A DNA stretch of 32,000 nt from NCBI GenBank assembly GCA_002689925.1, contig NZIO01000031.1, forward strand, positions 2,982-34,981. Direction: 5' to 3'. Positions within the stretch are counted from its first letter, which is position 1. Every line of letters begins with the position of its first letter. The notes under the pieces are model-generated. The model was not told where the DNA came from. It was given only the letters and a program-made list of their open reading frames with translations, and did not search any database. This document shows, in pieces, positions 946 to 20,334 of this stretch. The position numbers and the translations under genes were made by a program. Origin of the DNA: Candidatus Pelagibacter sp. (GTDB taxonomy: Bacteria > Pseudomonadota > Alphaproteobacteria > Pelagibacterales > Pelagibacteraceae).

Positions 946-2643
946 TTATTTCAGTTCTATTAAGTAATTACCCATTATTAAAATATCTATTGCTTTGTTT
1001 TGTAGTGTTTTTAAAGCTTCTTTTGGTTTACAAACTATCGGTTCTTCGTGAGCGTTAAAACTAGTATTAACTAACGCCATGTCACCAGTCAGCTCACAAT
1101 ATTTTTTTACAATATTATAATAATTAAGATTATCATTTTTGAATATTACTTGAGGTCTTGCAGTGCCATCTATATGTACAACAGCTGGATGCTTTTTTAT
1201 AAAATTGTTTGTACAGCGATATGTTCTTGTCATAAATTTACTTGCAACGTGGCTTTTATTCCAATTTATAAAACATTTTTTTGCATACTCCACAGGAGTT
1301 ACTGGTGCAAAAGGCATAAACTCTGTTCTATGCAATCTTTTGTTTAGCCAAGTGTTAATAGTAGAGTCTTTTGGGTTTGCTAGTATTGATCTATTTCCTA
1401 AGGCTCTTGGGCCATATTCCATCTTTCCATCAAATAAACCTATAATTTTTCCTTCTATTAATTTATTTGCTATAACGAGAGGTTTATTTTTTAAAAGTTT
1501 ATAATTTAAAATTTTGTAATTCTTTTTTAATTCTTTTAAAATTTCTTTATCTTTAAATATTGGACCTGAATACATATTATCAAATTTTACTTTCCCTTTT
1601 TTTGATAAATAGTATTTTGCTAAAGCAGCTGAACCAAAAGGTATGCCACCATCTGCCATATGAGGAAATACATATACATTTTTAATTCCTTTAATTTCTG
1701 AAACTATTTGATTAATTTTTACGTTTCCAAAAACACCCCCAGCTAAACAGATATTTTTAATATTTTTATTTTTTTTAATCCAATATTTAATCCAATTATA
1801 TATTATATCTTCACAATGTTTTTGTACTCCGGCTGCTATATCTTCTTTTGAATGTTTTTTTAATTTTATTAAAAGTTTTTTAGACAGTTTAGTATAAAAA
1901 GGTCTATATTCATTTAAATTACATTTAATTTCTCCATTCTTACAAGAAACAATTTTTTTAAAAATATTTATAGTTTTTTTTGGGTTTCCAAATGCAGCTA
2001 AGCCTGTAACTTTCCCTTCATGTTTATGAGGTGTAAATCCTAAATAATAAGTAATCTGTCCATACAAAAAACCAAGACCGTCAAACGCAGAAACAAGATA
2101 ACTTAATTCTTTAATACCTTTTTTAGAATCTCCATAACTAACTAAACCAGACCTCAAGTCTCCCCTTCCATCTAGTGTAAATATTAAGCTTTGTTTGAAA
2201 GGAGAAGAGCTAAAAGCTGACCACGCATGTGATTGATGATGATCTAAATATAAAATTTTTTTAATATCAATTTTAAGTTTTATGCATTCCTTTTCAAAAT
2301 CAACTCTTCTTTTATTATCTCTTTTATTTTCTACAATAACTCTTTCGTGAATTAATTTATATAAGTTATTATTTTTTTTACATTCTTCGTAAGCTCTATT
2401 AGAAAATTTGATATTATAATCACATATGTCATTTTTTTTCCCACACCATCCATAAGCAAAGTAATCTATATCTTTAATGTTTAAATTATGATTTGATAAG
2501 ATAAATTCTAAACTTTTAAATGGAAAACCTGCATACATTTTTTTCCGATTAAATCTTTCTTCATTGACAGCTGATATAACTTTTTGATCTTTGATTAAAC
2601 AAACTCCAGCGTCGCTAGCATTATGAATTCCTAAAATATACAT
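946..2643 (-). CDS. Carbamoyltransferase, NodU/CmcH/NovN family (sugar O-carbamoyltransferase candidate)
   Basis: 565-aa ORF. It has N-terminal YILGIHNASDAGVCLIKDQKVISAVNEERFNRKK, internal LDHHQSHAWSAF and C-terminal LVNTSFNAHEEPIV. Both the motifs and the length are characteristic of this family. Confidence 0.85.
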   Translation of the reverse strand: MYILGIHNASDAGVCLIKDQKVISAVNEERFNRKKMYAGFPFKSLEFILSNHNLNIKDIDYFAYGWCGKKNDICDYNIKFSNRAYEECKKNNNLYKLIHERVIVENKRDNKRRVDFEKECIKLKIDIKKILYLDHHQSHAWSAFSSSPFKQSLIFTLDGRGDLRSGLVSYGDSKKGIKELSYLVSAFDGLGFLYGQITYYLGFTPHKHEGKVTGLAAFGNPKKTINIFKKIVSCKNGEIKCNLNEYRPFYTKLSKKLLIKLKKHSKEDIAAGVQKHCEDIIYNWIKYWIKKNKNIKNICLAGGVFGNVKINQIVSEIKGIKNVYVFPHMADGGIPFGSAALAKYYLSKKGKVKFDNMYSGPIFKDKEILKELKKNYKILNYKLLKNKPLVIANKLIEGKIIGLFDGKMEYGPRALGNRSILANPKDSTINTWLNKRLHRTEFMPFAPVTPVEYAKKCFINWNKSHVASKFMTRTYRCTNNFIKKHPAVVHIDGTARPQVIFKNDNLNYYNIVKKYCELTGDMALVNTSFNAHEEPIVCKPKEALKTLQNKAIDILIMGNYLIELK

Positions 2644-2842: not shown

Positions 2843-3148
2843 ATGAAAAAAAATACAGATCACTTTAACGTATTAAGAAAAATTCAAAATAGCCCTGGCT
2901 CTTCTCAAAGAGAATTAGCAGAAGACCTAGGTTTTAGCCTTGGTAAACTTAATTATTGTCTAAAAGCTTTAAAAAACAAAGGTTTGGTTAAAATAGATAA
3001 TTTTACAAAAAGTGATAAAAAAATTAATTATATTTACAACTTAACACCAAAAGGGATTGCTCAAAAAACTAAGCTAACTATCGAATTTATGAAAATAAAA
3101 ATGAACGAATATGATGAGCTGCAATCAGAATTAAAGGGAAAAAAGTAA
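2843..3148 (+). CDS. MarR-family winged-helix transcriptional regulator, EPS-associated subfamily
   Basis: 101 aa. The stretch LRKIQNSPGSSQRELAEDLGFSLGKLNYCLKALKNKGLVKIDNFTKSDKKINYIYNLTPKGIAQKTKLTIEFMKIKMNEYDEL closely follows the consensus I recall for small EPS-locus MarR regulators (SQRelA..LG.SlGk.NYclkAL..KGlvK..nF..S..K..Y.Y.LTPkGi). Confidence 0.85.
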   Translation: MKKNTDHFNVLRKIQNSPGSSQRELAEDLGFSLGKLNYCLKALKNKGLVKIDNFTKSDKKINYIYNLTPKGIAQKTKLTIEFMKIKMNEYDELQSELKGKK

Positions 3149-3149
3149 A

Positions 3150-3650
3150 ATGTGGATAGTAGCTAAAATAAAATTAAAAGAAATCTACAATTTTAAAAAA
3201 GAAATGAAAAAAAAACTAGGAAACGACATAGAGTTTTATTATCCAACCATGTTATTTAATAGTCAAAATAAAAATAAATCAAGAATTTTAAAAAAAATGG
3301 TTTTAGGTTCTTATATATTTTGCAAACACCAAAGTCTTGAAAAAAATGAATTATTAAATCAGTTAAAATTCACAGTCGGGTTAAATTATTTTTTATTAGG
3401 ATATAAATATCATCAAAAACAAATATTAAATTTTATAAAATATTGTAAAGAAAATGAAGATCTTAATGGAAATTTGAATCAGAGTTTTTTTTCAAATTTA
3501 TTAAAAACTTCTGCAAAGTTTATGTCAGGACCATTATCTGGTTTAATTTTTGAAGTTGTTAATAAACAAAAAAATAGATTATCAGTTTTAGTTAATAGTA
3601 AAAAAATAGTTGTAAATAAAAAATCAGGCTACTTATATTTACCTGTTTAA
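3150..3650 (+). CDS. NusG/RfaH-like specialised transcription elongation/antitermination factor (NGN + KOW)
   Basis: The ATG lies 1 nt after the MarR stop. By-eye alignment to RfaH gives an NGN domain: MWIV (WYxx), FYYPTM (xxPM), LGSYIFCK (FPNYLFV), VGLNYFL (GVSHFV). The C-terminal SGPLSGLIFEVV...RLSVLV is KOW-like. Confidence 0.65.
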   Translation: MWIVAKIKLKEIYNFKKEMKKKLGNDIEFYYPTMLFNSQNKNKSRILKKMVLGSYIFCKHQSLEKNELLNQLKFTVGLNYFLLGYKYHQKQILNFIKYCKENEDLNGNLNQSFFSNLLKTSAKFMSGPLSGLIFEVVNKQKNRLSVLVNSKKIVVNKKSGYLYLPV

Positions 3651-3732: not shown

Positions 3733-4608
3733 GTGGGTACAAACACTAAAATTATAATAGGAACAGCAAATTTTGCAACTGAATATGGTATTTTGAAAAA
3801 AAAACCAATCAGTTTGAAAAATATTTCAAAAATATTTACTTTTTGTAAAAATTCAAAAATTAAATTTATTGATACAGCAAAAGCATATGGTAATTGTGAA
3901 GAAAAAATAGGAAAACTAAACTTAAAAAATTTTAAAGTCATTACTAAATTACAAAACTGTGAAAAAAAAAAAATTGATCACAAACAATGGGTAAGAAATC
4001 AAATTTTTAATTCTTTAAAATTATTAAACATAAATTCACTTTATGGAGTTTTGCTTCATAAACCTTTAGAGCTACTAAAACCAGGTGGAAAAGAAATTTA
4101 TTCTGCTTTAAAGAAACTTAAATTAAATGGTTATATTAAAAAAATTGGATTTTCAATTAATTCACCAAATGATCTAGATTTATTATTTAAAAAATTCAAA
4201 CCAGATATAGTTCAATCTCCTTTGAATATATTTGATAGAAGAATTGTAGAATCTGGTTGGTTAAGTCGTTTATCAAGCAAAAATATAGAAGTGCATGCAA
4301 GATCTATCTTTTTACAAGGCCTTCTTTTAAAAGAAAGAAAAAAAATTCCATCAAAATTTGCAGTTTATAATAAATTTTTTATTAATTGGCACAATTGGCT
4401 ATATAAAAATAATCAAAAACCACTTGAGGCTTGTTTAAACTTTATCTTTTCTCAAAAAAAAATAAATCAAATTGTAATTGGAATTGATAACTTGGAACAA
4501 TTAAAAATTATTTTAAAACATTCATATTCTAAAAAAGATTTACCACCTAAAAATTTATCTTCTAAATCATCTAAATTAATCAGCCCATCTGAATGGAAAA
4601 ATCTTTAA
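3733..4608 (+). CDS. Aldo/keto reductase family oxidoreductase (GTG start)
   Basis: 291 aa. N-terminal IIGTANFATEYG and IDTAKAYGNCEEKIG match the AKR signatures (lGt..fG, iDTA..YG.sE..iG). This is the first biosynthetic gene after the 82-bp leader. Confidence 0.7.
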   Translation: MGTNTKIIIGTANFATEYGILKKKPISLKNISKIFTFCKNSKIKFIDTAKAYGNCEEKIGKLNLKNFKVITKLQNCEKKKIDHKQWVRNQIFNSLKLLNINSLYGVLLHKPLELLKPGGKEIYSALKKLKLNGYIKKIGFSINSPNDLDLLFKKFKPDIVQSPLNIFDRRIVESGWLSRLSSKNIEVHARSIFLQGLLLKERKKIPSKFAVYNKFFINWHNWLYKNNQKPLEACLNFIFSQKKINQIVIGIDNLEQLKIILKHSYSKKDLPPKNLSSKSSKLISPSEWKNL

Positions 4609-5339
4609 ACATAACAGCATTAGTTCAAGCAAGAATGGGTTCTTCAAGACTTTATGGCAAAGTAATGAAGAAAGTTTGTGGAAAAAGTTTAATTGAATTA
4701 TTATTAAAACGATTATCCAAATCAAAATTAATAAAAAAAATAATTGTTATAACCCCAAAAAGTAATGAAAATGATATCCTTGCAAAAAAAGTTAAGTCTT
4801 TAGGTTATGACATTTTCAGAGGCAAAGAGAAAGATGTTTTAGATAGATTCTATCAAGCAATAAAGAAAGACAAACCAGAAATAGTTATAAGAATAACAGG
4901 AGATTGTCCTTTAATAGATTATAGGATAGTAGATAAGATGATTAAACTTTTTAAATCTAAAAATTATGATTATTTATCAAATAATGACCCACCCACATAT
5001 CCAGACGGACTAGACGTGGAAATGTTTAATTTTAAATCATTAGATTACGCCTGGAAATATGCTACTAAAAAATATGACAGAGAGCATGTGACTCCGTTCA
5101 TTAAAAAAACTAAAAAATTTAAGTGTAAAAATATAAAGCACTCTAAAGATTATAGCGACGAAAGAATTACTCTTGATGAACAAGAAGATTTTAAATTGAT
5201 AAAAAATATTTTTCAATATTTCTATCCAAAAATTTATTTTAATTGGTTAGAAATTATTAATCTTAAAAAAAAACGACCTTTATGGTTTAAAGTCAATCAA
5301 AACATTGAAAGAAACGAAGGATCAAAAAAATTAAATTAA
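4593..5339 (+). CDS. SpsF-type cytidylyltransferase-fold protein (CTP_transf_3-like)
   Basis: 248 aa. ALVQARMGSSRLYGKVMKKVCGKSLIELLLKRL and ITGDCPLID are typical of SpsF/FlmC-like proteins. It overlaps the upstream stop by 16 nt. Confidence 0.7.
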   Translation: MEKSLNITALVQARMGSSRLYGKVMKKVCGKSLIELLLKRLSKSKLIKKIIVITPKSNENDILAKKVKSLGYDIFRGKEKDVLDRFYQAIKKDKPEIVIRITGDCPLIDYRIVDKMIKLFKSKNYDYLSNNDPPTYPDGLDVEMFNFKSLDYAWKYATKKYDREHVTPFIKKTKKFKCKNIKHSKDYSDERITLDEQEDFKLIKNIFQYFYPKIYFNWLEIINLKKKRPLWFKVNQNIERNEGSKKLN

Positions 5340-5349
5340 ATTTTACAAA

Positions 5350-6672
5350 ATGAAAAAAAAGAATTTACTAAAAAAAGGACTAAAATTATATAAAAGAGCA
5401 AAAGAAATAATTCCTGGTGGAAACATGTTACTTTCTAAAAGACCAGAGCTTTTTTTGCCAGGTGGTTGGCCTCCATATTTTAAAAAAGCACAGGGATGTT
5501 TCGTTTGGGATATAGATAACAATAAATATATTGACATGAGTTTAATGGGAGTTGGAACTAACATATTAGGTTATTCTAATAAAATTGTAGACAAATCTGT
5601 GCAAAATGTAATTAAAACAGGTAACTTAAGCTCCCTTAATTGTGTAGAAGAAGTTCAGCTAGCTGAGCAGCTAATTAAAATACATCCTTGGGCAAAAATG
5701 GTGAAGTTTGCAAGATCTGGAGGAGAAGCTAATTCAATTGCAATAAGAATAGCAAGGGCTGCAAGCGGCAGAGATAAAGTTGCTTTTTGTGGATATCATG
5801 GTTGGCATGATTGGTATTTGGCAACTAATTTAGAAAAAAAAGGTAATCTGAATAGTCATCTTTTGCCTAGTTTAAAAATTAGGGGTGTTCCTCAAAATTT
5901 AAGAAATACAATATTCCCGTTTATGTACAATGATTTTAAACAATTGAAAAATATAGTGGACAGAGAAAAAATTGGAGTAATTTGCATGGAAGTTACTAGA
6001 AATGAATTACCAAAAAATAATTTTTTACAAAAAGTTAGAGATCTAGCTTCTAAAAAAGGTATTGTTCTTATTTTTGATGAATGCACCTCTGGATTTAGAA
6101 AAAATTTTGGAGGTATTCATAAGTATTTTAAAGTAAACCCAGACCTTGCTTTGTTTGGAAAGGCTTTAGGAAATGGATATGCAATTACATCAATTATTGG
6201 AAAAAAAGAAGTAATGGAGTCTGCTCAAGATAGTTTTATTAGTAGTACTTTTTGGACTGAAAGAGTGGGGCCAACAGCTGCATTGGCTACTCTAAGAACA
6301 ATGAAACAAACTAAATCATGGGAAAAAATAGATTCTAATGGAAAGTTTATTATTAAAGAATGGTCAAGACTTGCAAAAAAATATAATTTAGATATACAAA
6401 TCCAAGGTCTTCCTGCTTTGTGTAGTTTTTCAATTAAAAGCAAATATTCTAGGCAATATAAAACATTGATTTCACAAGAAATGTTAAAAAAGGGCTTTTT
6501 AGCTGGAACAGCAATTTATTCAACAGTTTCTCATACTAAAGAAATTTTAAATAAGTATTTTTATGAATTAGAAAGAATATTTAAGCTAATTCAAAGCTGT
6601 GAAGATGGAAGAAATATTTTTGATATATTAAATTACCCCACAGCACACTCAACATTTGAAAGATTAAATTAA
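5350..6672 (+). CDS. Class-III PLP aminotransferase, glutamate-1-semialdehyde aminomutase-like
   Basis: 440 aa. IPGGNMLLSKRP..., ARSGGEANSIAIRIARA, IFDECTSGFR and DLALFGKALGNGYA (PLP lysine) match the HemL-like layout. The glycan-locus context argues against a housekeeping HemL. Confidence 0.75.
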   Translation: MKKKNLLKKGLKLYKRAKEIIPGGNMLLSKRPELFLPGGWPPYFKKAQGCFVWDIDNNKYIDMSLMGVGTNILGYSNKIVDKSVQNVIKTGNLSSLNCVEEVQLAEQLIKIHPWAKMVKFARSGGEANSIAIRIARAASGRDKVAFCGYHGWHDWYLATNLEKKGNLNSHLLPSLKIRGVPQNLRNTIFPFMYNDFKQLKNIVDREKIGVICMEVTRNELPKNNFLQKVRDLASKKGIVLIFDECTSGFRKNFGGIHKYFKVNPDLALFGKALGNGYAITSIIGKKEVMESAQDSFISSTFWTERVGPTAALATLRTMKQTKSWEKIDSNGKFIIKEWSRLAKKYNLDIQIQGLPALCSFSIKSKYSRQYKTLISQEMLKKGFLAGTAIYSTVSHTKEILNKYFYELERIFKLIQSCEDGRNIFDILNYPTAHSTFERLN

Positions 6673-6677
6673 AAATT

Positions 6678-7700
6678 ATGAAAAAAAATAAGTTCAAATT
6701 ACCTTTTTTTATTGCAGAAATTTCAGCAAATCATTGTGGAAATTTTAATTTAGCAAAAAAATTAATTAAATGTGCAAAAGATAATGGTGCTGATGCTGTA
6801 AAATTGCAAACTTATACTGCAGATACAATGACTATTAAATCTGATAAAAAATATTTTAAGATTAAAGATGGTTTATGGAAAGGTTATCAGCTTTGGGATT
6901 TATACAACAAAGCCCATACTCCACTGGTATGGCACTCAAAACTTTTTAAATATGCAAAATCTATTGGAATCAAAATCTTTAGCACTCCATTTGATGAAAC
7001 AGCTGTAGATTTTTTAGAGAAGTTAAATTGTCCAATTTATAAGATTGCTTCATTTGAAATGACAGACATACCTTTAATAGCAAAAATTGCTTCAACAAAA
7101 AAACCTTTAATTATTTCTACTGGGATGGCAACTTTAGATGAAATTGAATTAACATTTAACACTGCAAAAAAATATGGCTCTAAGGATATTACTCTTTTAT
7201 ATTGTGTTAGTAATTATCCATCAAAAAATTCAGATTTTAATTTAAATAATATAAAAATTTTAAAAGATAAATTTAAATGTAGAGTTGGTTTTTCAGATCA
7301 TTCAAAAAATAATAAAATTGCATTAGCTGCAATTGCATCTGGAGCAGAAGTAATTGAAAAGCATATAGCTTTAGGAAATCAAAAAAAAGGACTTGATATT
7401 AACTTTTCTTTAAAAGGAAAAGAAATAGGAGTTTTTAGACAAATTATTGATGAAGCTTATAACCTATTAGGTAAAAAAAGATTCTACAGAAACAAATCTG
7501 AGGATAAAAGCAAAGTTTTTAGGAGATCTATATTTGCAATTAAAGATATAAGAAAGGGTGAAAAATTTACCAAAAACAATATAAAACGAATTAGACCAGG
7601 TTATGGACTGCCTCCACTTTATTATAAAAGATTGTTAAATAAAAAATCTTTAATTAATATAAAGAAAGGAACACCCTTAAAATTTAATAATTTCAAATAG
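6678..7700 (+). CDS. pseI: Pseudaminic acid synthase-like NeuB-family nonulosonic acid synthase
   Basis: 340 aa. FIAEISANHCGNFNLAKKLIKCAKDNGADAVKLQTYTADTMT...GLW...LY..AHTP..WH...YKIASFE...ISTGMAT...GFSDHS...VIEKH, plus a C-terminal SAF-like segment, tracks my recollection of Campylobacter/Helicobacter PseI closely. Confidence 0.8.
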   Translation: MKKNKFKLPFFIAEISANHCGNFNLAKKLIKCAKDNGADAVKLQTYTADTMTIKSDKKYFKIKDGLWKGYQLWDLYNKAHTPLVWHSKLFKYAKSIGIKIFSTPFDETAVDFLEKLNCPIYKIASFEMTDIPLIAKIASTKKPLIISTGMATLDEIELTFNTAKKYGSKDITLLYCVSNYPSKNSDFNLNNIKILKDKFKCRVGFSDHSKNNKIALAAIASGAEVIEKHIALGNQKKGLDINFSLKGKEIGVFRQIIDEAYNLLGKKRFYRNKSEDKSKVFRRSIFAIKDIRKGEKFTKNNIKRIRPGYGLPPLYYKRLLNKKSLINIKKGTPLKFNNFK

Positions 7701-8737: not shown

Positions 8738-10030
8738 ATGAAAAAAATAGTTTATGTTGCTTTATCAGCAGACATTTTACATGAAGGACATATAAATGTT
8801 CTTAAAAAAGCATCAAAATTTGGAGATGTAGTAGTAGGACTTCTTACCGACGAAGCTATAGCAACATATAAAAAGTTTCCTCATCTAAACTACAAACAAA
8901 GAGAAATTGTTTTAAAGAATATTAAATTTGTTAAAAGAGTAATACCTCAAAGAACACATGATTATTCAGAAAATTTAAATATACTTAAGCCTCACTTTGT
9001 AGTACATGGAGATGATTGGAAAAAAGGTGTTCAATCTTTAGTAAGAAAAAGAGTCTTAAGTACTTTAAAAAAATGGAAAGGTAAGTTAATTGAAATAAAG
9101 TATACAAAAAATATTTCTTCGACACTAATAAGAGATAAAATTAAATCATTAGGCACAACACCTGAAGTAAGAAAGTCGAAATTAAAAAGATTAATAGCAG
9201 CAAAAAAAATTGTTAGATTTCTTGAGTCACACAATTCGCTTACAGGATTAATTATTGAGAAACTTAATATAGTCAGTAAAAATCAAATATTAGAATTTGA
9301 TGGTATGTGGTCATCAAGCCTAACCGACTCAATATCAAGAGGTAAGCCTGATAATCAATCAGTTGATTATTCTACAAGAATATTGGGGCTTAATGAGACA
9401 TTAGACGCAACAACTAAACCTATAATTTTTGATGCAGATAATGGCGGAAGAAACGAACATATACGTCACCTTGTTAAATCCTTAGAGAGAGCGGGAGTTT
9501 CAGCAATGGTTATAGAGGACAAGGTTGGTTTAAAGCAAAATTCATTATTTAAGAATCAAAAAAACATTAAACAAGATAGTATAAAAGAATTTTGTAAAAA
9601 AATTCAGATTGCTAAAGACTCAAGAATTTCTAATGATTTTATGATTGTAGCTAGAATAGAAAGTTTTATTTTAGGAAAGTCTCTTAAAGATGCCCTTAAT
9701 AGGGCAGAAGCTTACTCAAAGGCAGGAGCTGATGCAATTTTAATTCACAGCAAAGAAAAGACTCCAAAACAGATTTTTAGTTTTTCAAAAAAATTTATAA
9801 AAAGCAAATACTATAAACCTATGATTGCAGTACCTTCCAAATATTCAAAAACTAATGAAATTTCATTGATTAAGAATAATTTTAAAGTTGTAATTTATGC
9901 AAATCATTTAATGAGAGCATCACATTTTGCAATGTACAAAACAGCTAGCCAAATTTTAAAAAACGGCAGAAGTTTTGAATCTGAAAAAAATATTACAAAC
10001 CTCGAATCAATCCTGCGTCTTATAAAATAA
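8738..10030 (+). CDS. pepM: Bifunctional cytidylyltransferase (HxGH type) / phosphoenolpyruvate mutase
   Basis: 430 aa. The N-terminal ~135 aa carry HEGH (nt 8780-8791) and ISSTLIR, which are TagD/CCT/ECT-type cytidylyltransferase signatures. The C-terminal ~280 aa are isocitrate-lyase/PEP-mutase-like and contain EDKVGLKQNS (nt 9515-9544), an exact match to the EDK-X5-NS PEP-mutase discriminator motif. Confidence 0.85.
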   Translation: MKKIVYVALSADILHEGHINVLKKASKFGDVVVGLLTDEAIATYKKFPHLNYKQREIVLKNIKFVKRVIPQRTHDYSENLNILKPHFVVHGDDWKKGVQSLVRKRVLSTLKKWKGKLIEIKYTKNISSTLIRDKIKSLGTTPEVRKSKLKRLIAAKKIVRFLESHNSLTGLIIEKLNIVSKNQILEFDGMWSSSLTDSISRGKPDNQSVDYSTRILGLNETLDATTKPIIFDADNGGRNEHIRHLVKSLERAGVSAMVIEDKVGLKQNSLFKNQKNIKQDSIKEFCKKIQIAKDSRISNDFMIVARIESFILGKSLKDALNRAEAYSKAGADAILIHSKEKTPKQIFSFSKKFIKSKYYKPMIAVPSKYSKTNEISLIKNNFKVVIYANHLMRASHFAMYKTASQILKNGRSFESEKNITNLESILRLIK

Positions 10031-10040
10031 TAAACATTTT

Positions 10041-10838
10041 ATGATTAGTAAAAAAGATATTTTAAAATATAATAATGATGGGTATTTAACAATTAAAAAT
10101 TTTTTTAATAAAAAAGAAATATTAAACGCTAAAAATGAAATATTAAAAAAAGTAAATTCTAAAAATAAATTAATATCTACTTATTATGAGGATATTAAAA
10201 AAAAAAAAGAAATTCGAAGAATTGAAAAAATATCAGATTATTCAAAATATTCAAAAAAACTTGTAATTTCAGAAAAATTAAAAAAAATATTAAAAATTCT
10301 TTTAAAGAAAAAATTTTTTTTGTTCAAAGATAAGGTCAACTTTAAACAACCTGGTGGAGCAGGTTTTCTTCCTCATATTGATGGACATTTTTATTGGAAA
10401 AATAAAAAAGATGGTAAACAGCAAGAAGGGTGGAGTAAATATGGAGACAGCTTTATTAATATTGTGATCCCAATGGATTCAACTACAAAAAAGAATGGTT
10501 ATCTTTTTTTATCTAAAAAAAAATATACTTTTAAAAAGTATGGAAAAAGATGGAAAAATATTGCTGATAATTTAGTTTCAGGCACACCTAACTTAAAAGA
10601 TGATGATATTAAAGATTTCAAGTTTAATGGAATGGTTTTAAATATAGGAGATATACTTATTTTTGATTGGAAATGTTGTCATTTTTCAAAAAAAAATTTA
10701 AGTAAAAAATCCAGAATGATTTTTTATCTTACATATGTAAATGCTTGTAAAAAAAATTCTAATTATTTAGTTCGTAAAAAATATTATAGTGAAAAAAAAA
10801 ACAGTCTTAATCCTTTAAAAAGAAAATCATTACAATAG
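10041..10838 (+). CDS. PhyH-family Fe(II)/2-oxoglutarate-dependent dioxygenase
   Basis: 265 aa. Start MISKKDILKYNNDGYLTIKNFF; KQPGGAGFLPHIDGHF (HxD, nt 10374-10382); distal His in CCHFS (nt 10680-10682); SRMIFYLTY as a candidate 2OG-binding Arg. Very lysine-rich. Confidence 0.6.
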   Translation: MISKKDILKYNNDGYLTIKNFFNKKEILNAKNEILKKVNSKNKLISTYYEDIKKKKEIRRIEKISDYSKYSKKLVISEKLKKILKILLKKKFFLFKDKVNFKQPGGAGFLPHIDGHFYWKNKKDGKQQEGWSKYGDSFINIVIPMDSTTKKNGYLFLSKKKYTFKKYGKRWKNIADNLVSGTPNLKDDDIKDFKFNGMVLNIGDILIFDWKCCHFSKKNLSKKSRMIFYLTYVNACKKNSNYLVRKKYYSEKKNSLNPLKRKSLQ

Positions 10839-10840
10839 AA

Positions 10841-11941
10841 ATGATAGCTGCTAAAAATTTTTCAAATACTCTGTTAAAAGAAAATATTAACTTTATAACT
10901 GGTGTACCTGATAGTGTTTTAAAAAATATGATTTTTTCATTTGATAAAAATAAGAAATTTAAGCATATGCCTGCAAATAATGAAGGAACTGCAGTTGCTT
11001 TAGCAATAGGCCATAACTTATCTACAAAGAAAATGGCAGCTGTTTACTTTCAAAACTCTGGACTAGGAAATGCCATAAATCCACTTATTTCTATTGCTCA
11101 TCAAAAAGTATACTCAATTCCAATGGTTTTGATAATAGGTTGGAGAGGATCACCAAATAAACCTGTTGATGAACCTCAACATTCAGTAAAAGGAAAAATT
11201 ACAAAGCAAATTCTTAAACTTTTAAATATTAAGTATTGTATTATAAGAAAAAAGAAGGATTTGAATAAACTTAAAGATTTAATCAAGTTATCTAAAAAAA
11301 ATAAAAAACCAGTAGCATGTTTAGTCGAAAAAGGAACACTTGAAAATCAAAGCAACAAAAACAAAAAAAAATCTAAAAAAAAATATTTACTTAGACATGA
11401 AATAATTTTAGATTTATTAAACAAAATTAAACCTAGCACAAAAATAATCTCAACTACTGGTTATACCTCAAGAGAATTGTATCAATTAAGAAATACTTAT
11501 AATATTTCGAAAGGATCAGATTTTTATATGGTTGGTGGCATGGGTCATTCAGCGATGGTATCTGTTGGTGTAGCACTTAGTACAAGAAATGAAATAATAT
11601 GTTTAGATGGAGATGGATCAATTTTAATGCACCTAGGTTCTTTGAGTTTAATAAGAGGGTCAAATAATAAAAATTTTAAACATATTTTATTAAATAATAG
11701 TTCTCACGAATCAGTTGGGGGACAAAAAACACCAGCTAACAAAATTAATTTTAAATTATTAACTTCTAGCCTAGGGTATAAAAATTATTTTTTTGCCTCT
11801 AATAAGAAAAATTATAATACAAATATTAATAAGTTTTTAAAATCAAAAGGGCCAAGCTTCTTTGAAATTAGAATAGAAGAAGGAAGTATAAAAAATTTAT
11901 TAAGGCCAAATAATTTAAAGAAAATTAAGAATAAATTTTAA
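10841..11941 (+). CDS. ppd: Phosphonopyruvate decarboxylase (ThDP-dependent)
   Basis: 366 aa. INFITGVPDSVLK, NEGTAVALAIGH and the ThDP motif LDGDGSILMHLGS...ILLNNSSHESVGGQ are present. The size, and the position two genes downstream of the PEP mutase gene (the dioxygenase ORF lies between them), fit Ppd. Sulfopyruvate decarboxylase is the nearest alternative family. Confidence 0.8.
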   Translation: MIAAKNFSNTLLKENINFITGVPDSVLKNMIFSFDKNKKFKHMPANNEGTAVALAIGHNLSTKKMAAVYFQNSGLGNAINPLISIAHQKVYSIPMVLIIGWRGSPNKPVDEPQHSVKGKITKQILKLLNIKYCIIRKKKDLNKLKDLIKLSKKNKKPVACLVEKGTLENQSNKNKKKSKKKYLLRHEIILDLLNKIKPSTKIISTTGYTSRELYQLRNTYNISKGSDFYMVGGMGHSAMVSVGVALSTRNEIICLDGDGSILMHLGSLSLIRGSNNKNFKHILLNNSSHESVGGQKTPANKINFKLLTSSLGYKNYFFASNKKNYNTNINKFLKSKGPSFFEIRIEEGSIKNLLRPNNLKKIKNKF

Positions 11942-11950
11942 CTATTTTTA

Positions 11951-13069
11951 ATGATTAGCTATTTAAAATCTACCAATTTAAGTTCTTTAAAAGAATTGTT
12001 AAAAAAAAATAACAATAAAAGAATATTAGTTATTTCAGGAAAAAAATCTTATTATAAGTCTGGAGCAAATAAAATATTTTTTAATTTGTTTAAAAAATTT
12101 AAACATCTAAACTTTTATTTTAAACAATCTTATTTTCCAGAAATTAGTGAATTAATTAAAATAATAAGAAGAATTAAAATATTTCAACCAGATATAATTA
12201 TATCAATTGGAGGAGGTTCAGTTATAGATTATGCAAAAATTGCAAATACCCTATATGATTGTAGAAATATAAAGAATCTAATTATCAAATCAAAGTACAA
12301 TATTAAAAATAAGTATTGTTCATTAATAGCAATACCTACAACCGCAGGCTCAGGAGCAGAAGTAACATCTAATGCAGTAATCTATATTGATAAAAAAAAA
12401 TATTCCATTGAGAATGAAGCATTGATTCCAAATTATTTTTATTTTATCCCTGAATTAATTAAGAATTCTTCAAAAAAAATTAAAGCTTCTTCTGGATTTG
12501 ATGCGATGGCTCAATCACTTGAATCTATTATTTCATTAAAATCAAATTCTACAAGTATAAAATATGCATCAAAATCACTTGAATATTCTTTAAATAATTA
12601 TTTAAATTTTATAAAAAAACCAAATATAAAAAATACTTATAATATGTGTATTTCTGCAAATTTATCTGGCAAAGCTATAAGCATTTCTAAAACAACAGCA
12701 CCTCATGCTGTATCTTATCCTTTTACAGCACATTTTGGAGTAAGTCATGGACATGCTGTATCTCTTACTCTTAATGAGTTTTTAAAATTTAACTTTTTTA
12801 ATATGGGTAATATTAACGTGAATTTTAATTTAAAAAAAAGGTATGAATTAATTTTTAAAATTTTCAAAGTAAAAAATATTTTTGAATTTGATAAAAAATT
12901 AGAAAATTTAAAAAAAGAAGCTAAACTAGAGCAAAATTTTACTAAATTGGGCATTAACATAGCCGAAAACTATAGTAAAATTTTATCTGGAGTTAATACA
13001 CTTAGACTTAAAAACAATCCTATTAATCTAGACAGATCAATAATTAAGAAAATTCTTTTAGAAAAATAA
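11951..13069 (+). CDS. Iron-containing alcohol dehydrogenase, phosphonate-associated (phosphonoacetaldehyde reductase candidate)
   Basis: 372 aa. GGGSVIDYAKI, PTTAGSGAEVT and HAVSYPFTAHFGVSHGHAVS are Fe-ADH signatures. It lies immediately after ppd. Confidence 0.7.
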   Translation: MISYLKSTNLSSLKELLKKNNNKRILVISGKKSYYKSGANKIFFNLFKKFKHLNFYFKQSYFPEISELIKIIRRIKIFQPDIIISIGGGSVIDYAKIANTLYDCRNIKNLIIKSKYNIKNKYCSLIAIPTTAGSGAEVTSNAVIYIDKKKYSIENEALIPNYFYFIPELIKNSSKKIKASSGFDAMAQSLESIISLKSNSTSIKYASKSLEYSLNNYLNFIKKPNIKNTYNMCISANLSGKAISISKTTAPHAVSYPFTAHFGVSHGHAVSLTLNEFLKFNFFNMGNINVNFNLKKRYELIFKIFKVKNIFEFDKKLENLKKEAKLEQNFTKLGINIAENYSKILSGVNTLRLKNNPINLDRSIIKKILLEK

Positions 13070-13074
13070 AACAG

Positions 13075-14442
13075 ATGCCTAAAGATACTATAATATATAT
13101 TCCAATTGAGGCTCCAAAAAGAGAACTTACTTCAAAAACAATGCTTGCTACAAGATTAGCTAAAGCTGGCTATACTACTATATTATTTGAGCACAGTTTT
13201 TTTGATAGACATAAATGGAAAATGCCGGGATTATATTTAGGTAAAAATTTTTTTAGATACGAGAAAAGCAAAACAAATAAATCCTGGTATAATGAAATGA
13301 AAAAAAGCAAAATTGATATTTGGTATTTAGATGAAGAGGCAGGAATTTTCCCTGGAAAAGACCCTAAATCATGGAAAATTTTTTTAGATGAAAGAATTGA
13401 TATAAATAATTTATCATCAAAAGATAAGATTCTTGTTTGGGGAAGGTGGCAGAAAGAACATTGGATAGAAAAAACAAATAAACATGAAGAAAAAAACATT
13501 ATTATAACTGGAACACCACATTATGATATGCTTCAAACAAAATATCATAAATATTTTAGAGAATTTGATTTAAATACTACAGGTAATCTTGAAAATTATA
13601 TTTTAATAAATACTAGATTTTCTCTCGTAAATAGTCATCCAAGACTAGGAAGAAAGGCTGTAGAGAAATTTTATTTAGATGCTGAAGAATCTTTTAAAAA
13701 GTTTAATAAAGAAAAATTTTCTTCTCTCATATTTAAAGAAGAAACTTTTTTAATAAAAAATTTTATTGAATTAGCTAAATACTTATCTGAAAATTTTACT
13801 GATAAAAATATTGTGCTTAGAGCTCACCCAGATGAAGGTTCAGAAAGATATAAAAATGAATTAAGTGCGCATAAAAATATAAAAGTAATTTCTGAGGGAG
13901 GGATTGATAGCTGGATAAGACTTTCTGATTGTGTAATTCACAATGGTTGTTCAACAGCAATTCAGGCTGATTTTGCAAAAAAAAAAGTAATTAGTTATTT
14001 ACCTTCAGATGGAGGACTAAATTTTTATGTAACTACACCAGGTTTACCCAACATGATTGGATTTTTAGCTAAAACCAATGAAGATGTTAAGGAAGCAATA
14101 AAAAATCCAGTTTACAAACAATCAAAACAAAAATGGGAAAGCACTTTTTCTGAAGAAAATACTATTGAAAAAATTGCTTCAATGGTTGAAGAATTTTATC
14201 CAGAAGACAAAACTTCTTCAATGAATATATTTAAGAATTTAAAGATAAAATATTTCATGGTTAATATAAAAGAGTTTTTAAAGGATATCTTAAGACCAAT
14301 TTTTAAAAAACCAAAAGTAATTTTTCCATATGAGGAGTTTTATAATATTATGAAAATTTCATCTACGACATCTAATATTTATGACACTAAAATTTCAGTT
14401 AATAAATTAGCAAGAGGAGCTATTGTAATATCGCCAAAATAA
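13075..14442 (+). CDS. Uncharacterised surface-carbohydrate biosynthesis protein, GT-B / Capsule_synth (KpsS/TagF)-like
   Basis: 455 aa. It has a Rossmann-like N-terminus (IIYIPIEAPKRELTSKTMLATRLAKAGYTTILF). The C-terminal half, IVLRAHPDEG...IKVISEGGIDSWIRLSDCVIHNGCSTAIQADFAKKKVISY, resembles the HP...ST...A motif arrangement of capsule/teichoic CMP/CDP-donor transferases. No specific family is recognised. Confidence 0.35.
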   Translation: MPKDTIIYIPIEAPKRELTSKTMLATRLAKAGYTTILFEHSFFDRHKWKMPGLYLGKNFFRYEKSKTNKSWYNEMKKSKIDIWYLDEEAGIFPGKDPKSWKIFLDERIDINNLSSKDKILVWGRWQKEHWIEKTNKHEEKNIIITGTPHYDMLQTKYHKYFREFDLNTTGNLENYILINTRFSLVNSHPRLGRKAVEKFYLDAEESFKKFNKEKFSSLIFKEETFLIKNFIELAKYLSENFTDKNIVLRAHPDEGSERYKNELSAHKNIKVISEGGIDSWIRLSDCVIHNGCSTAIQADFAKKKVISYLPSDGGLNFYVTTPGLPNMIGFLAKTNEDVKEAIKNPVYKQSKQKWESTFSEENTIEKIASMVEEFYPEDKTSSMNIFKNLKIKYFMVNIKEFLKDILRPIFKKPKVIFPYEEFYNIMKISSTTSNIYDTKISVNKLARGAIVISPK

Positions 14443-14456
14443 TTAATTTTTGAAAA

Positions 14457-14972
14457 ATGAATAAAAATAAAGGAATACTTTTTTGGGTTACTGGACTTTC
14501 AGGATCTGGAAAAACAGAAATTTCAAAAAAAATAAAAAATAAGATATCAAAATTATATGGTCCAACTATAATTTTGCATGGCGATCAACTCAGAAAAACG
14601 TTAAATCTTACAAGATACTCAAAAAATGATAGATATTTAAATTCTAAAAAGTTTGCATTACTTTGCAAAAGTTTAACGGATCAAAAAATTAATGTTATTA
14701 TTGCGCTTATAGGTCTTTTTCATAAAACCCATTCCTGGAATAGGAAAAATATTGATAACTATATAGAAATTTATATACAAAGTAATGTAAAAAAAATAAT
14801 CAGTTATAATAAAAAGAAAACATATAAAAATAATAAAAAAAATATTGTTGGTTTAGATATAAAAGCAGAATTTCCAAAAAAACCACATATTAAAATTGTT
14901 AATAATTTTACAAAAGATTTAAATTATTTGGCACAGGTATTAATTAAAAAAATTAATTTTTTGATAAGTTAA
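14457..14972 (+). CDS. P-loop kinase with adenylylsulfate (APS) kinase fold, divergent CysC-like
   Basis: 171 aa. GILFWVTGLSGSGKTEIS matches the CysC P-loop context. ILHGDQLRKTL aligns with LLDGDNVRHGL, and SKNDRYLNSKKF with SDADRKENIRRV. The FISP and RDPKGLY motifs are degenerate (ALIGLF, SYNKKKTY). Confidence 0.5.
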   Translation: MNKNKGILFWVTGLSGSGKTEISKKIKNKISKLYGPTIILHGDQLRKTLNLTRYSKNDRYLNSKKFALLCKSLTDQKINVIIALIGLFHKTHSWNRKNIDNYIEIYIQSNVKKIISYNKKKTYKNNKKNIVGLDIKAEFPKKPHIKIVNNFTKDLNYLAQVLIKKINFLIS

Positions 14973-16106: not shown

Positions 16107-17168
16107 ATGGCATCAGTTATAAATATTCAAAATAAAAAAATTGGACCTCATGAACCAGTTTTTATTATTGCTGAAATTGGTGTAAATCATAATGGTGATA
16201 TAAATGTTGCAAAAAAATTAATTGAAAAGGCCAAGGAATCAGGAGCAGACTGTGTCAAGTTTCAAACTTTTAAAGCAGAAAATTTAGTAACAAAAAAGGC
16301 CGTTAAAGCAAAGTATCAAGTCTTAAACGATAAACAATCAAAAGATAAAAATCAGTTTGAAATGTTAAAAAAACTTGAACTTTCAAGAGAGTCATTTGAA
16401 AAAATTTTAAAACATTGTTCTGACAATAAAATTATCTTTATTTCTACCCCATATAATTATGAGGATGTTGACTTTTTACTAAGTTATGATGTTCCTGCTT
16501 TTAAACTTTCTTCTATGCATGCTCAAGAACCTAGCTTTGCTAATTATGTAGCAAAAAAAGAAAAACCAATAATTTTATCAACAGGAATGACATCTCTTGA
16601 TCAAATTAAAGAAACAGTTAAAGCGATTAACTTAACTGGAAATAAAGATTTGGCTCTTCTTCAATGTACAACTTCATACCCATCAAAAATTTCAGAATCA
16701 AACTTGAAAACAATAAAGACCTTAGAAAAAACTTTTAATACTATAGTTGGTTTTTCAGATCATACTTTAGGTTATATTTCTGCAGTTACCTCCATAGGAT
16801 TAGGAGCTAAGATTATTGAAAAACATTTAACACTTGATAAAAGCATGAAAGGACCAGATCATGCAGCTTCTTGTGACCCTAATGAATTTTCTATTTTTGT
16901 TAGAATGATTAGAGATGCAGAAAAGACTTTAGGTTCTGAAATTAAAGAGCCAACTTTACATGAAAAAGAAAATATGGAATTTATGCTGAGAAGTATTTGT
17001 GCAAAAAAAAATATTGTTAAAAATACTATTATAAATGAAGAAATGTTAACTTTTAAAAGACCTGGAGATGGAATTCCTCCAAGACAAATAAATTCTTTAA
17101 TTGGAAAAAAAGTTGTTAGAAATATTTTAGCAGATGAATTAATAAATTGGGAAGATTTAGAAAAATAG
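16107..17168 (+). CDS. neuB: N-acetylneuraminate/legionaminate synthase (NeuB/LegI type) with C-terminal SAF domain
   Basis: 353 aa. FIIAEIGVNHNGDINVAKKLIEKAKESGADCVKFQTF, FKLSSM, LSTGMTS, LLQCTSSYPS-like (LQCTTSYPS), GFSDHT, IIEKHLTLDKSMKGPDH and a SAF-like tail. It is a distinct paralogue of the PseI-like gene at 6678. Confidence 0.85.
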   Translation: MASVINIQNKKIGPHEPVFIIAEIGVNHNGDINVAKKLIEKAKESGADCVKFQTFKAENLVTKKAVKAKYQVLNDKQSKDKNQFEMLKKLELSRESFEKILKHCSDNKIIFISTPYNYEDVDFLLSYDVPAFKLSSMHAQEPSFANYVAKKEKPIILSTGMTSLDQIKETVKAINLTGNKDLALLQCTTSYPSKISESNLKTIKTLEKTFNTIVGFSDHTLGYISAVTSIGLGAKIIEKHLTLDKSMKGPDHAASCDPNEFSIFVRMIRDAEKTLGSEIKEPTLHEKENMEFMLRSICAKKNIVKNTIINEEMLTFKRPGDGIPPRQINSLIGKKVVRNILADELINWEDLEK

Positions 17169-18643: not shown

Positions 18644-19658
18644 AATTGCTTTAATTGTTGGTATTACAGGTCAAGATGGGTCTTATTTAGCAGATTTTTT
18701 ATTGTCAAAAGGTTATCAAGTACATGGGTTACAAAGAAGGGCAAGTACATCTAATACTCAAAATATTGAACATCTAAATTTAGATGTAAAAACTCAAAAA
18801 AATGTTCATTTACATTATGGTGATTTGACAGATTCATCTAGTTTAAACAAAATAGTTCACTTTTGTAAACCAGATGAAATATACAATATTGGAGCCCAAT
18901 CTCATGTACACACATCTTTTCAAATGCCATTGTTTACTTCTAATGTAAATGCACTTGGAACCATAAGACTTTTAGATGTTATTAAAAATATAAATCCAGA
19001 CACAAAATTTTATCAAGCTTCGACAAGTGAACTTTTTGGTGATGCATTAGAATCTCCACAGACGGAAAAAACTCCTTTCAATCCTAGATCACCTTATGCA
19101 ATATCCAAGCTAAGTTCTTTTCATTTTGTTAAAAATTATAGAGAGGCTTTTAAAATTTTTGCTTGTAATGGAATACTTTTTAATCACGAGTCGCCTCGAA
19201 GAGGTCAGACTTTTGTTTCTAGAAAAATTACTAGAGCAGTAGCTGAAATTTATAAAGGAAATAAAGAAAAGATTTATCTTGGTAATCTTAATGCAAAACG
19301 AGATTGGGGTTATGCAAAAGAATACGTTGAAGCAATGTGGTTAATGCTTCAAAAAAAGGAGCCTGATGATTTTATTATAGCTACAGGAAAAAACTATAGC
19401 GTTAGAGATTTTGTGGAAAAAGCTTTTTCTTACATAAATATTGATTTAGTTTGGGAAGGAAAAGATGATCAAGAAAAAGGAATAAATAAAAAGAATAATA
19501 AAGTTCTAGTAGAAATTGATCCTTATTATTATAGACCTACAGAAGTAAATAGCTTAGTAGGAGATTTTTCAAAAGCACAAAAAACTTTAGGTTGGAAACC
19601 TAAAGTACAATTTAATGAATTAGTTGAAATTATGATGAGGGCAGAGCTTGAAAAATAA
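18633..19658 (+). CDS. gmd: GDP-mannose 4,6-dehydratase
   Basis: 341 aa. [70 protein letters not shown] and [10 protein letters not shown] are classic Gmd signatures. It overlaps the upstream stop by 11 nt. Confidence 0.9.
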
Positions 19659-20334
19659 AAAAATTATAGCACTAATAATTGCTAAAAAAAATAGCAAAAG
19701 ATTATCAAAAAAAAATTTTAGAAAAATTAAAAATATTTCTATTACAGAAAGAACTATAAAAATTGCTAAGACTTGCAAGTATTTGGATAAGATAATGTTA
19801 TCATCAGATTCTAAAGAATTAATACAAATTGCTAATAAACATAAAATTTCAGCTCCTTTTATAAGACCTGCATATTTATGTAAAAGTAAAGTTAAACCCT
19901 GGCCAGTAATAAAACATTCAATAAATTATTTGAGTCAGCTGAAAGAAAAATATGATTTCATGCTTTTGTTACAACCAACATCAGCACTAAGAAAAAAAAA
20001 ACATATTGATAAAGCAATACAAATCATGAAAAAAAACAAATATAAAAAAAACGTTTATTCTATGGTGACAAAAGATAATTGTAAAAAAATAAAATTTGCA
20101 AAAATTTATGCTGAAGTGGGCAATAAATTTTCTCAAAGTATAAATATTTTAAATCAAAAACAGATAAAAACAAAAGCCGTTGTTAATGGAAATATTTATT
20201 TATTTAATATTAAAAAAGCAATTTTAAATAGAAGTCATTTTTTAAATAATTCAATTGGATTTTTAATGAATAAAAAAGATTCAATTGACATAGATACTCT
20301 TCAAGACCTTAAAGAAGCAAGGAAATATATTTAA
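19648..20334 (+). CDS. Acylneuraminate (nonulosonate) cytidylyltransferase, NeuA/LegF-like (TTG start)
   Basis: 228 aa. [40 protein letters not shown] and [10 protein letters not shown] match the CMP-NulO synthetase layout. The first in-frame ATG would delete the nucleotide-binding N-terminus, so a TTG (19648) or nearby ATT/ATA start is required. Confidence 0.75.

Follow-up and report, generated by a model that had tools for sequence, protein, structure and literature searches.

The locus described here raises the question of what an oxygenase gene does between two genes of phosphonate biosynthesis in a SAR11 bacterium. The gene, an open reading frame (ORF) at positions 10041–10838, lies in a 32,000-nucleotide stretch of Candidatus Pelagibacter sp. 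(assembly GCA_002689925.1, contig NZIO01000031.1), which is referred to throughout, at its full length, as the window. SAR11 has been estimated to hold most of the surface-ocean potential for phosphonate synthesis, and its phosphonates have never been chemically identified (PMC8931226). The only genes noted beside pepM in the principal study of marine producers were ppd, pdh and mpnS. The analysis points to a PhyH-type Fe(II)/2-oxoglutarate (2OG) oxygenase that very likely tailors the phosphonate of its cassette. The narrower proposal, that it hydroxylates C1 of 2-hydroxyethylphosphonate (HEP), either free or as its cytidine monophosphate (CMP) conjugate, to give a 1,2-dihydroxyethylphosphonate (1,2-DHEP) head group, is put forward with a slight leaning in its favour, by analogy with characterized enzymes.

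The oxygenase gene and its cassette

The genes that make up the cassette, together with a kinase gene that recurs beside it in related loci, are the following:

8738–10030, forward strand: PF01467 cytidylyltransferase fused to a phosphoenolpyruvate (PEP) mutase (CyTase-Ppm), Fom1 architecture; TIGR02320, 350.8 bits against a cut-off of 319.6
10041–10838, forward strand: PhyH-type Fe(II)/2OG oxygenase, 265 amino acids, ATG start; member of a PhnY*-related clade of phosphonate biosynthetic clusters
10841–11941, forward strand: phosphonopyruvate decarboxylase (Ppd); TIGR03297, 384.8 bits against a cut-off of 312.5
11951–13069, forward strand: iron-type alcohol dehydrogenase (Fe-ADH; Pfam Fe-ADH and ADH_Fe_C), presumed phosphonoacetaldehyde reductase yielding HEP (PhpC/FomC-like)
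14457–14972, forward strand: P-loop kinase resembling adenosine 5'-phosphosulfate (APS) kinase; Pfam APS_kinase, E 2e-20; NF004041, 131 bits against a cut-off of 127

The oxygenase gene is separated by 10 nt from the upstream gene, which ends at 10030, and by 2 nt from the downstream gene, which starts at 10841. An earlier, sequence-only reading of the window had given exactly these distances and the length of 265 residues, and its naming of the flanking genes as ppm and ppd was borne out by TIGR02320 and TIGR03297 scores above cut-off. In the CyTase-Ppm fusion, the CTP_transf_like domain covers residues 12–133 and the PEP_mutase domain residues 149–407 (Pfam), and the translation contains EDKVGLKQNS, an instance of the Ppm motif EDKxxxxxNS. 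The Fe-ADH scored 127 bits against the Phn_Fe-ADH model TIGR03405, under its cut-off of 423.7. A transaminase of the PhnW type (Aminotran_5), which would lead to 2-aminoethylphosphonate (AEP), was not found among the scanned window ORFs, and no homologue of MpnS or HEPD was found in the window. The possibility of a hidden MpnS or HEPD, which would turn the oxygenase into a methylphosphonate hydroxylase yielding hydroxymethylphosphonate, was considered for two ORFs and rejected: the one at 21441–22778 (forward strand, 445 amino acids) gave no Pfam or NCBIfam match and no meaningful match to PDB sequences, and that at 13075–14442 (455 amino acids) belongs to TIGR04396. The oxygenase ORF itself is not a chance reading frame, since an identical protein is on record from Candidatus Pelagibacter sp. 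TMED64, 58 further homologues accompany it, and four putative ligand residues are invariant across 36 aligned sequences.

Fold and active site

The translation matched the Pfam family PhyH (PF05721) with an E value of 2.2e-14 and 54.7 bits against a cut-off of 22, over profile positions 1–212 of 213. An AlphaFold2 model built with the alignment as input reached a predicted local distance difference test score (pLDDT) of 94.1 and a predicted template modelling score (pTM) of 0.92. When this model was compared with the PDB by Foldseek, the top matches were all PhyH-family 2OG hydroxylases (probability 1.0, E values from 9e-15 to 4e-12), namely proline hydroxylase H11, GriE, MysH, SnoN/SnoK, PHYHD1 and EctD. 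On its sequence and its predicted structure, the protein is a full-length PhyH-type Fe(II)/2OG oxygenase with a double-stranded beta-helix fold. The residues assigned to the active site are:

10374–10382, forward strand: H112-x-D114, candidate proximal iron ligands; invariant in the 36 sequences, aligned with HSD of the EctD motif FDWHSD
10680–10682, forward strand: H214, candidate distal iron ligand; invariant, aligned with the His of EctD MHGS
10713–10715, forward strand: R225, candidate Arg binding the C5 carboxylate of 2OG; invariant, aligned with the Arg of EctD YPRN

EctD was also the top solved relative when the 36-sequence alignment was searched as a profile against PDB sequences (E 3.7e-14). 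In that alignment the PHxD motif of the oxygenase family falls on WHSD of EctD, whose HSD provides iron ligands of that enzyme. H214 stands at the start of a modelled strand (214–216), and R225 follows it by 11 residues, a spacing equal to that of the aligned His and Arg of EctD. Besides H112, D114, H214 and R225, the residues R60, E62, K96, K98, N100, K102, W131, N152, S216, N219 and S221 are invariant across the 36 homologues. R60 and E62, which are also kept in a relative fused to an HD domain, correspond to Ser and Phe in EctD; together with the ladder formed by K96, K98 and K102, they are candidate binders of a phosphonate or a nucleotide.

The positions given in the sequence-only reading for H112 (nt 10374), D114 (nt 10380) and H214 (nt 10680) proved exact, and the Arg that it had tentatively placed in SRMIFY is R225, at nt 10713. 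Its assignment of a PhyH-type dioxygenase with a facial triad and a 2OG-binding Arg is now agreed on by Pfam, by residue invariance, by the AlphaFold2 model, by Foldseek and by the EctD alignment. The Pfam search and structure prediction that it had proposed as checks returned PhyH above cut-off and a confident beta-helix fold, and the triad residues were recognised by their invariance and by the EctD alignment. MpnS, HEPD and HppE are 2OG-independent cupins that act on HEP or HPP through a 2-His-1-Glu/Gln site and lack the Arg for 2OG. An identity of this kind found no support, as the PDB comparison gave no match to MpnS or HEPD and the protein is of the PhyH type with R225.

Linkage to phosphonate genes in close marine relatives

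A total of 164 related loci were gathered from genomes and metagenomes, and the cassette proteins of the window were mapped onto them. The close clade comprises 47 non-redundant loci with 43–54% identity to the oxygenase, mostly from Pelagibacteraceae single-cell genomes and marine metagenomes. The gene for ppm, ppd or an orthologous Fe-ADH was visible in 27 of these 47 loci, and 34 of the 47 had one of these or the APS-kinase-like gene in view; in 24 of the 47, a cassette gene lay at most 300 bp from the oxygenase. Of the 13 loci whose flanks measured 5 kb or more on each side, 9 contained ppm, ppd or Fe-ADH (11 when the kinase was counted). The close homologues are accordingly found mainly within phosphonate contexts, the opposite of what the sequence-only reading had named as evidence against itself.

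Unsupervised clustering of the neighbouring genes placed CyTase-Ppm first (22 loci, median gap 29 bp), followed by the APS-kinase-like gene (21–23 loci, median 164 bp from the oxygenase), Fe-ADH (18 loci; 14–18 across counts) and Ppd (16 loci). The gene order varied. CyTase-Ppm, PhyH, Ppd and Fe-ADH follow one another in the window and in L006, L087 and L093; the kinase leads in L091, L095, L094, L085 and others, where it is followed by PhyH, CyTase-Ppm, Ppd and Fe-ADH; and in L105 the order is Ppd, Fe-ADH, PhyH and CyTase-Ppm. Other loci are divergent or spaced. The search for homologues between ppm and ppd suggested by the sequence-only reading thus gave a divided answer: linkage to phosphonate genes is conserved, but the slot between ppm and ppd, occupied in 4 of the 22 loci with a visible ppm, is only one of several arrangements. 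A neighbour-joining tree grouped the oxygenases by cassette type, the pattern expected if the oxygenase were inherited with its cassette. Judged from gene content across loci, the oxygenase is a cassette member and no bystander, as had been claimed from its position alone: its linkage to CyTase-Ppm, Ppd, Fe-ADH and the kinase is kept despite the shuffled order, and fusion proteins, described below, point the same way.

A separate arrangement was seen in L010 (6858–9857) and L104. At an island edge next to priA, the genes there read Fe-ADH (a distant homologue, 29% identity) < phosphoglycerate-kinase family (388 amino acids) < NTP_transf_3 < PhyH.

Kinship with PhnY* and more distant relatives

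The top curated NCBIfam match of the ORF was NF052437, the PhnY* methylphosphonate hydroxylase of Gimesia, which likewise ranked first among the curated families for each of the 36 aligned sequences (best E 6e-43). The ORF is, on this evidence, related to PhnY* without being that enzyme, since its score of 62.8 bits is far under the equivalog cut-off of 500. Several homologues of about 50% identity carry the JGI name '2-aminoethylphosphonate dioxygenase'. In a library of 1.84 billion representatives, the family comprised 603 clusters at E ≤ 1e-3, 160 at ≤ 1e-10 and 20 at ≤ 1e-30.

Several library relatives are fusion proteins. HD-PhyH fusions resembling PhnZ-PhnY* (P0160, P0184 and P0204, the last 31% identical to the ORF) share with the ORF family the motifs FKxKxNFK...PHxD, H-S-x-x-N-x-S-x-x-x-R and R-I-E. 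A Ppd(TPP_C)-PhyH fusion (P0107) is 28% identical to the ORF, P0176 is a methyltransferase-PhyH fusion and P0199 a CyTase(PF01467)-methyltransferase-PhyH fusion; methyltransferase genes also adjoin relatives in L165, L167 and L168. A segment of about 11–13 residues after HxD (DGHFxWK...GW or DGxFxWK...GW) is present in the SAR11 clade and in P0107 and absent from the HD-PhyH fusion. By their domain composition, the fusions tie the oxygenase family both to catabolic PhnY* and to biosynthetic Ppd and phosphonate cytidylyltransferase.

The more distant set comprises 107 loci with 26–31% identity, from soil and aquatic Proteobacteria, Rokubacteria/Methylomirabilota, Nitrospinota and others; their neighbours were clustered with a filter on G+C at third codon positions (GC3) against spurious antisense ORFs in high-GC loci. 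The ppm gene was in view in 22 of the 107 loci, and in 10 of the 43 with long flanks. The most frequent neighbours were a PntC-like NTP_transf_3 (25 loci), a cytidine diphosphate (CDP)-alcohol phosphatidyltransferase (18) and a Ppm-NTP_transf_3 fusion (16), with Ppd, LPG_synthase_TM and MlaA also recurring; TagF-like, LicD-like or sulfatase/DUF3413 genes adjoin the oxygenase in loci with no ppm in view. P0059, 36% identical to the ORF, has CyTase-Ppm, Ppd and a TylF methyltransferase as neighbours. In a 63.5-kb contig classed as viral (IMG/VR_UViG_3300030430_004778, L168:7215–11752), a methyltransferase, PhyH, Ppm, a split Ppd, an aminotransferase-V-like gene and a PF01467 CyTase stand in a row; glycosyltransferases were noted upstream of this run and an amidase-domain protein downstream.

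Proposed function and competing explanations

In the proposed pathway, the Ppm domain would convert PEP into phosphonopyruvate, from which Ppd would form phosphonoacetaldehyde; the Fe-ADH would reduce this to HEP, and the CyTase domain fused to Ppm would convert HEP into CMP-HEP, as in Fom1, whose CyTase domain makes CMP-HEP (PMC6697681). The oxygenase would hold Fe(II) by H112, D114 and H214 and 2OG by R225, and an Fe(IV)-oxo intermediate would then hydroxylate C1, the phosphorus-bearing carbon, of HEP or CMP-HEP. The resulting 1,2-DHEP would be esterified to the nonulosonic-acid-rich surface glycan of the island in which the cassette lies. The fold, the ligand residues, the kinship with PhnY* and the conserved linkage to ppm, ppd, Fe-ADH and the CyTase are shown by the data; which substrate is used, that it is attacked at C1, whether this precedes cytidylylation and what the acceptor is are inferred. 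The remark in the sequence-only reading that the cassette carries an alcohol dehydrogenase in place of a transaminase held up, and a HEP-derived substrate is a sensible guess because the Fe-ADH is present and no PhnW-type transaminase was found. C1 hydroxylation of HEP or CMP-HEP is favoured because the window is predicted to make and activate HEP and yielded no AEP transaminase, MpnS or HEPD.

The chemistry has precedents. The 2OG oxygenases DhpA and FzmG turn 2-HEP into 1,2-DHEP (PMC4303578), PhnY* hydroxylates the phosphorus-bearing carbon of 2-AEP or methylphosphonate (PMC4303578; PMC8942020), and FzmG has been described as a PhnY* homologue, such enzymes commonly hydroxylating the alpha-carbon of phosphonates (PMC8942020). 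The suggestion that the window encodes a new tailoring step therefore has to be given up, as DhpA and FzmG already carry out the 2-HEP to 1,2-DHEP conversion (PMC4303578) and a 2OG oxygenase is a listed core gene of a known cluster family (PMC8942020); the reaction type is known, and it is the SAR11 host and glycan setting that is a new context.

Several observations weigh against 2-HEP hydroxylation as the general function. The ORF falls well short of the PhnY* equivalog cut-off, and FzmG, in addition to its hydroxylation, oxidises phosphonoacetaldehyde to phosphonoacetate (PMC4303578; PMC8942020), so that another outcome is possible. In four of the 13 long loci, neither ppm nor ppd nor Fe-ADH was seen within 10 kb. 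In L001, L100 and L097, CyTase-Ppm and Ppd are accompanied by NTP_transf_3 and an AsnB-like amidotransferase (624 amino acids in L001), with no Fe-ADH in view, and L098, L008, L121 and L096 have the arrangement CyTase-Ppm < c18 < c19 > PhyH with no recognisable Ppd. Since such variants lack Fe-ADH or Ppd, HEP cannot be the substrate of every clade member. The c18 and c19 proteins, of about 368 and 318 amino acids (for example L008:1706–2815, reverse strand, and L008:2887–3843, forward strand), gave no Pfam or NCBIfam match; they may represent another route that pulls the Ppm equilibrium forward.

These variants, above all the cassettes without Fe-ADH (L001, L100, L097) or without Ppd (L098, L008), could be accommodated by phosphonate tailoring with a different substrate or outcome: an FzmG-like conversion of phosphonoacetaldehyde into phosphonoacetate, a PhnY*-like hydroxylation of 2-AEP supplied by an unlinked or non-PhnW aminotransferase, or action on a phosphonate already attached to the glycan. 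That FzmG performs both aldehyde oxidation and alpha-hydroxylation lends this substance, as do the AEP-type phosphonolipid clusters occupied by distant relatives and the methyltransferases found repeatedly beside or fused to relatives, which suggest further processing of the oxygenase product. The window does hold a class-III aminotransferase (5350–6672) and DegT-type aminotransferases, but the former travels with NeuB and sugar genes and not with ppm, no PhnW-type Aminotran_5 was seen among the scanned ORFs, and the Fe-ADH in the cassette of the window and of most long related loci points to HEP. A different substrate or outcome is thus considered unlikely for the window, though it is the explanation that deserves most attention after 2-HEP hydroxylation. 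A catabolic role was also weighed, in which the enzyme, like PhnY*, would ready external 2-AEP or methylphosphonate for oxidative C–P cleavage in phosphorus scavenging. The PhnY* model is the top curated match, JGI names homologues accordingly, and HD-PhyH fusions are detectable as relatives; however, the score is 62.8 bits against 500, the gene sits inside a biosynthetic operon at 10 and 2 nt from ppm and ppd, and producer genomes almost never hold consumption pathways (PMC8931226). This PhnY*/PhnZ explanation was rejected as highly improbable, no HD-domain (PhnZ) gene having been found among the scanned window ORFs of at least 100 amino acids or among the genes that repeatedly adjoin the oxygenase in the close clade.

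The oxygenase might instead act on a glycan component other than a phosphonate (a sugar, the N-acyl group of a nonulosonic acid or a nucleotide sugar), its proximity to ppm reflecting no more than a shared hypervariable island. The window is crowded with sugar-modifying genes, two alignment members weakly match TIGR04324 ('sporadic carbohydrate cluster 2OG-Fe(II) oxygenase'), and some close relatives have no ppm within 8–10 kb: none lies within 10 kb in L007, L102 and L010, and none is in view on the P0022 contig. In L007 and on the P0022 contig, the gene abutting the oxygenase encodes a B12-binding radical-SAM enzyme. The best curated matches of the L007 gene (10762–12267, reverse strand) are phosphonate or phosphinate P-methyltransferases (NF038361, 245 bits; PhpK family, 120 bits), which by homology is still phosphorus chemistry, and in the tree L007 groups with clade members that have ppm about 8 kb away. 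Against a sugar target stand also the specificity of the linkage, which is to CyTase-Ppm at a median of 29 bp and to no sugar gene, its persistence across phyla with differing sugar genes, the Ppd-PhyH and CyTase-PhyH fusions, and the phosphonate hydroxylase that is the top curated family. A sugar role is possible but is a weaker reading than phosphonate tailoring, and it is judged improbable.

The glycan island and the APS-kinase-like gene

The G+C content of the window is 25.6%, and between about 2.8 and 31.4 kb its genes form a single array read in one direction. The features beyond the cassette are:

4593–5339, 19648–20334 and 24599–25360: three CTP_transf_3 cytidylyltransferases
5350–6672: class-III aminotransferase
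6678–7700 and 16107–17168: two NeuB-type synthases
13075–14442, forward strand: TIGR04396 'surface carbohydrate biosynthesis protein', 455 amino acids; 238.4 bits against a cut-off of 125
20335–21438, forward strand: Sulfotransfer_3-family protein

The remainder includes LegC/DegT aminotransferases, NeuD, dehydratases, epimerases, an ABC exporter and glycosyltransferases, and the ORF at 27353–28120 (forward strand, 255 amino acids), within the glycan island, gave no Pfam or NCBIfam match. As judged from these annotations, the phosphonate cassette belongs to a surface-glycan island with many genes for nonulosonic acids; the two NeuB-type synthases and three cytidylyltransferases suggest more than one nonulosonic-acid pathway in one island. 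The product of 13075–14442 is a candidate transferase or glycan-assembly partner.

At the head of the cluster, a winged-helix helix-turn-helix (HTH) gene (2843–3148, forward strand) precedes a weak UpxY-like antiterminator (3150–3650, forward strand; NF033644, 35 bits). The HTH gene recurs beside the phosphonate cassette in L001, L005, L088 and L097, and the second gene accompanies it in L001, L088 and L097. A carbamoyltransferase gene of the NodU/CmcH type (946–2643, reverse strand) lies shortly before the cluster and is read in the opposite direction.

Campylobacter Cj1415, which acts in the phosphoramidate modification of the capsule, offers a possible analogy for the APS-kinase-like gene. 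By this analogy, the kinase of the window might 3'-phosphorylate a CMP-phosphonate to give a donor resembling 3'-phosphoadenosine 5'-phosphosulfate (PAPS), a reading that is allowed because the kinase is tightly linked to the CyTase-Ppm/PhyH pair. It may also only supply PAPS to the sulfotransferase-family protein at 20335–21438 for glycan sulfation. Taken together, these ideas lead to a compound proposal that is offered as speculation with small prospects of being right in all its parts: the SAR11 glycan would bear 1,2-DHEP and not plain HEP or methylphosphonate, and the kinase, by analogy with Cj1415, would make a PAPS-like donor for a sulfotransferase-fold or TIGR04396 transferase. If so, a sizeable share of marine phosphonate would already have the 1-hydroxyl needed by PhnZ-type cleavage and would give no methane via C–P lyase.

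Significance

A conserved PhnY*-like oxygenase in many SAR11 cassettes predicts an alpha-hydroxy phosphonate and not simply HEP or methylphosphonate. Such a product would change the 31P nuclear magnetic resonance signals to be sought in cells and in dissolved organic matter, the catabolic routes that can be used (PhnZ-type oxidative cleavage versus C–P lyase), and the extent to which SAR11 phosphonate feeds aerobic methane production. A literature search returned no report of 1,2-DHEP on a bacterial glycan or of this oxygenase in Pelagibacter clusters; within the literature searched, no description was met of the clade as part of HEP-type glycan cassettes of SAR11, of its regular pairing with a gene for an APS-kinase-like protein or of the predicted DHEP decoration. 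The enzyme is small, soluble and well modelled, which makes it suited to asking whether free or CMP-activated phosphonates are taken as substrates in cell-surface pathways.

Comparison with known systems

The nearest solved structures and sequences, those of EctD, H11, GriE and PHYHD1, have metal and 2OG ligands at equivalent positions. Identity to EctD and the other solved PhyH hydroxylases is only 12–20%, and their substrates are unrelated. PhnY* of the PhnY*/PhnZ pathway (NF052437) has the PhyH fold in common with the ORF, which differs in its biosynthetic context and in that no PhnZ partner was found beside it; HD-PhyH fusions occur only among its remote relatives.

An alpha-ketoglutarate oxygenase belongs to the seven-gene phosphonolipid core 'Burkholderiales_CDP-OH', the largest family of ppm clusters, for which 1-hydroxy phosphonates were predicted (Li & Horsman 2022, PMC8942020). 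Relatives of the ORF with 26–31% identity (tblastn, E 1e-30 to 1e-36) adjoin a Ppm-PntC fusion, a second PntC, a CDP-alcohol phosphatidyltransferase and LPG_synthase_TM, in keeping with the published content of that core, and by sequence the ORF is homologous to the core oxygenase. The core contains an AEP transaminase and lipid transferases, neither of which was found among the scanned window ORFs, whereas the window has Fe-ADH (the HEP branch), a PF01467 and not a PF12804 cytidylyltransferase, and glycan genes.

The early fosfomycin pathway (Fom1, Fom2 and FomC) contains the same trio of CyTase(PF01467)-Ppm fusion, Ppd and Fe-ADH as the window. Its Fom3, a B12 radical-SAM enzyme acting on CMP-HEP, is a precedent for the tailoring of a CMP-activated phosphonate (PMC6697681), and some relatives of the oxygenase adjoin a B12 radical-SAM methyltransferase that recalls it. 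Fom3, Fom4 and FomD are absent from the window; tailoring there would fall to a 2OG oxygenase, and what is made presumably decorates a glycan instead of serving as an antibiotic.

The closest functional parallel is offered by DhpA of dehydrophos and FzmG of fosfazinomycin biosynthesis, 2OG/Fe oxygenases that act in ppm clusters after Ppm, Ppd and an alcohol dehydrogenase and catalyse the reaction proposed here. By sequence, their link to the ORF is indirect and runs through the description of FzmG as a homologue of PhnY* (PMC8942020). By context, the ORF directly adjoins the genes ppm, ppd and Fe-ADH in the window, a linkage that is conserved in related loci. DhpA and FzmG belong to Streptomyces antibiotic pathways, whereas the ORF lies in a cell-surface glycan island. 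The SAR11 cassette adds to their gene set a Fom1-like CyTase fusion and an APS-kinase-like gene, and its substrate may therefore be the CMP conjugate.

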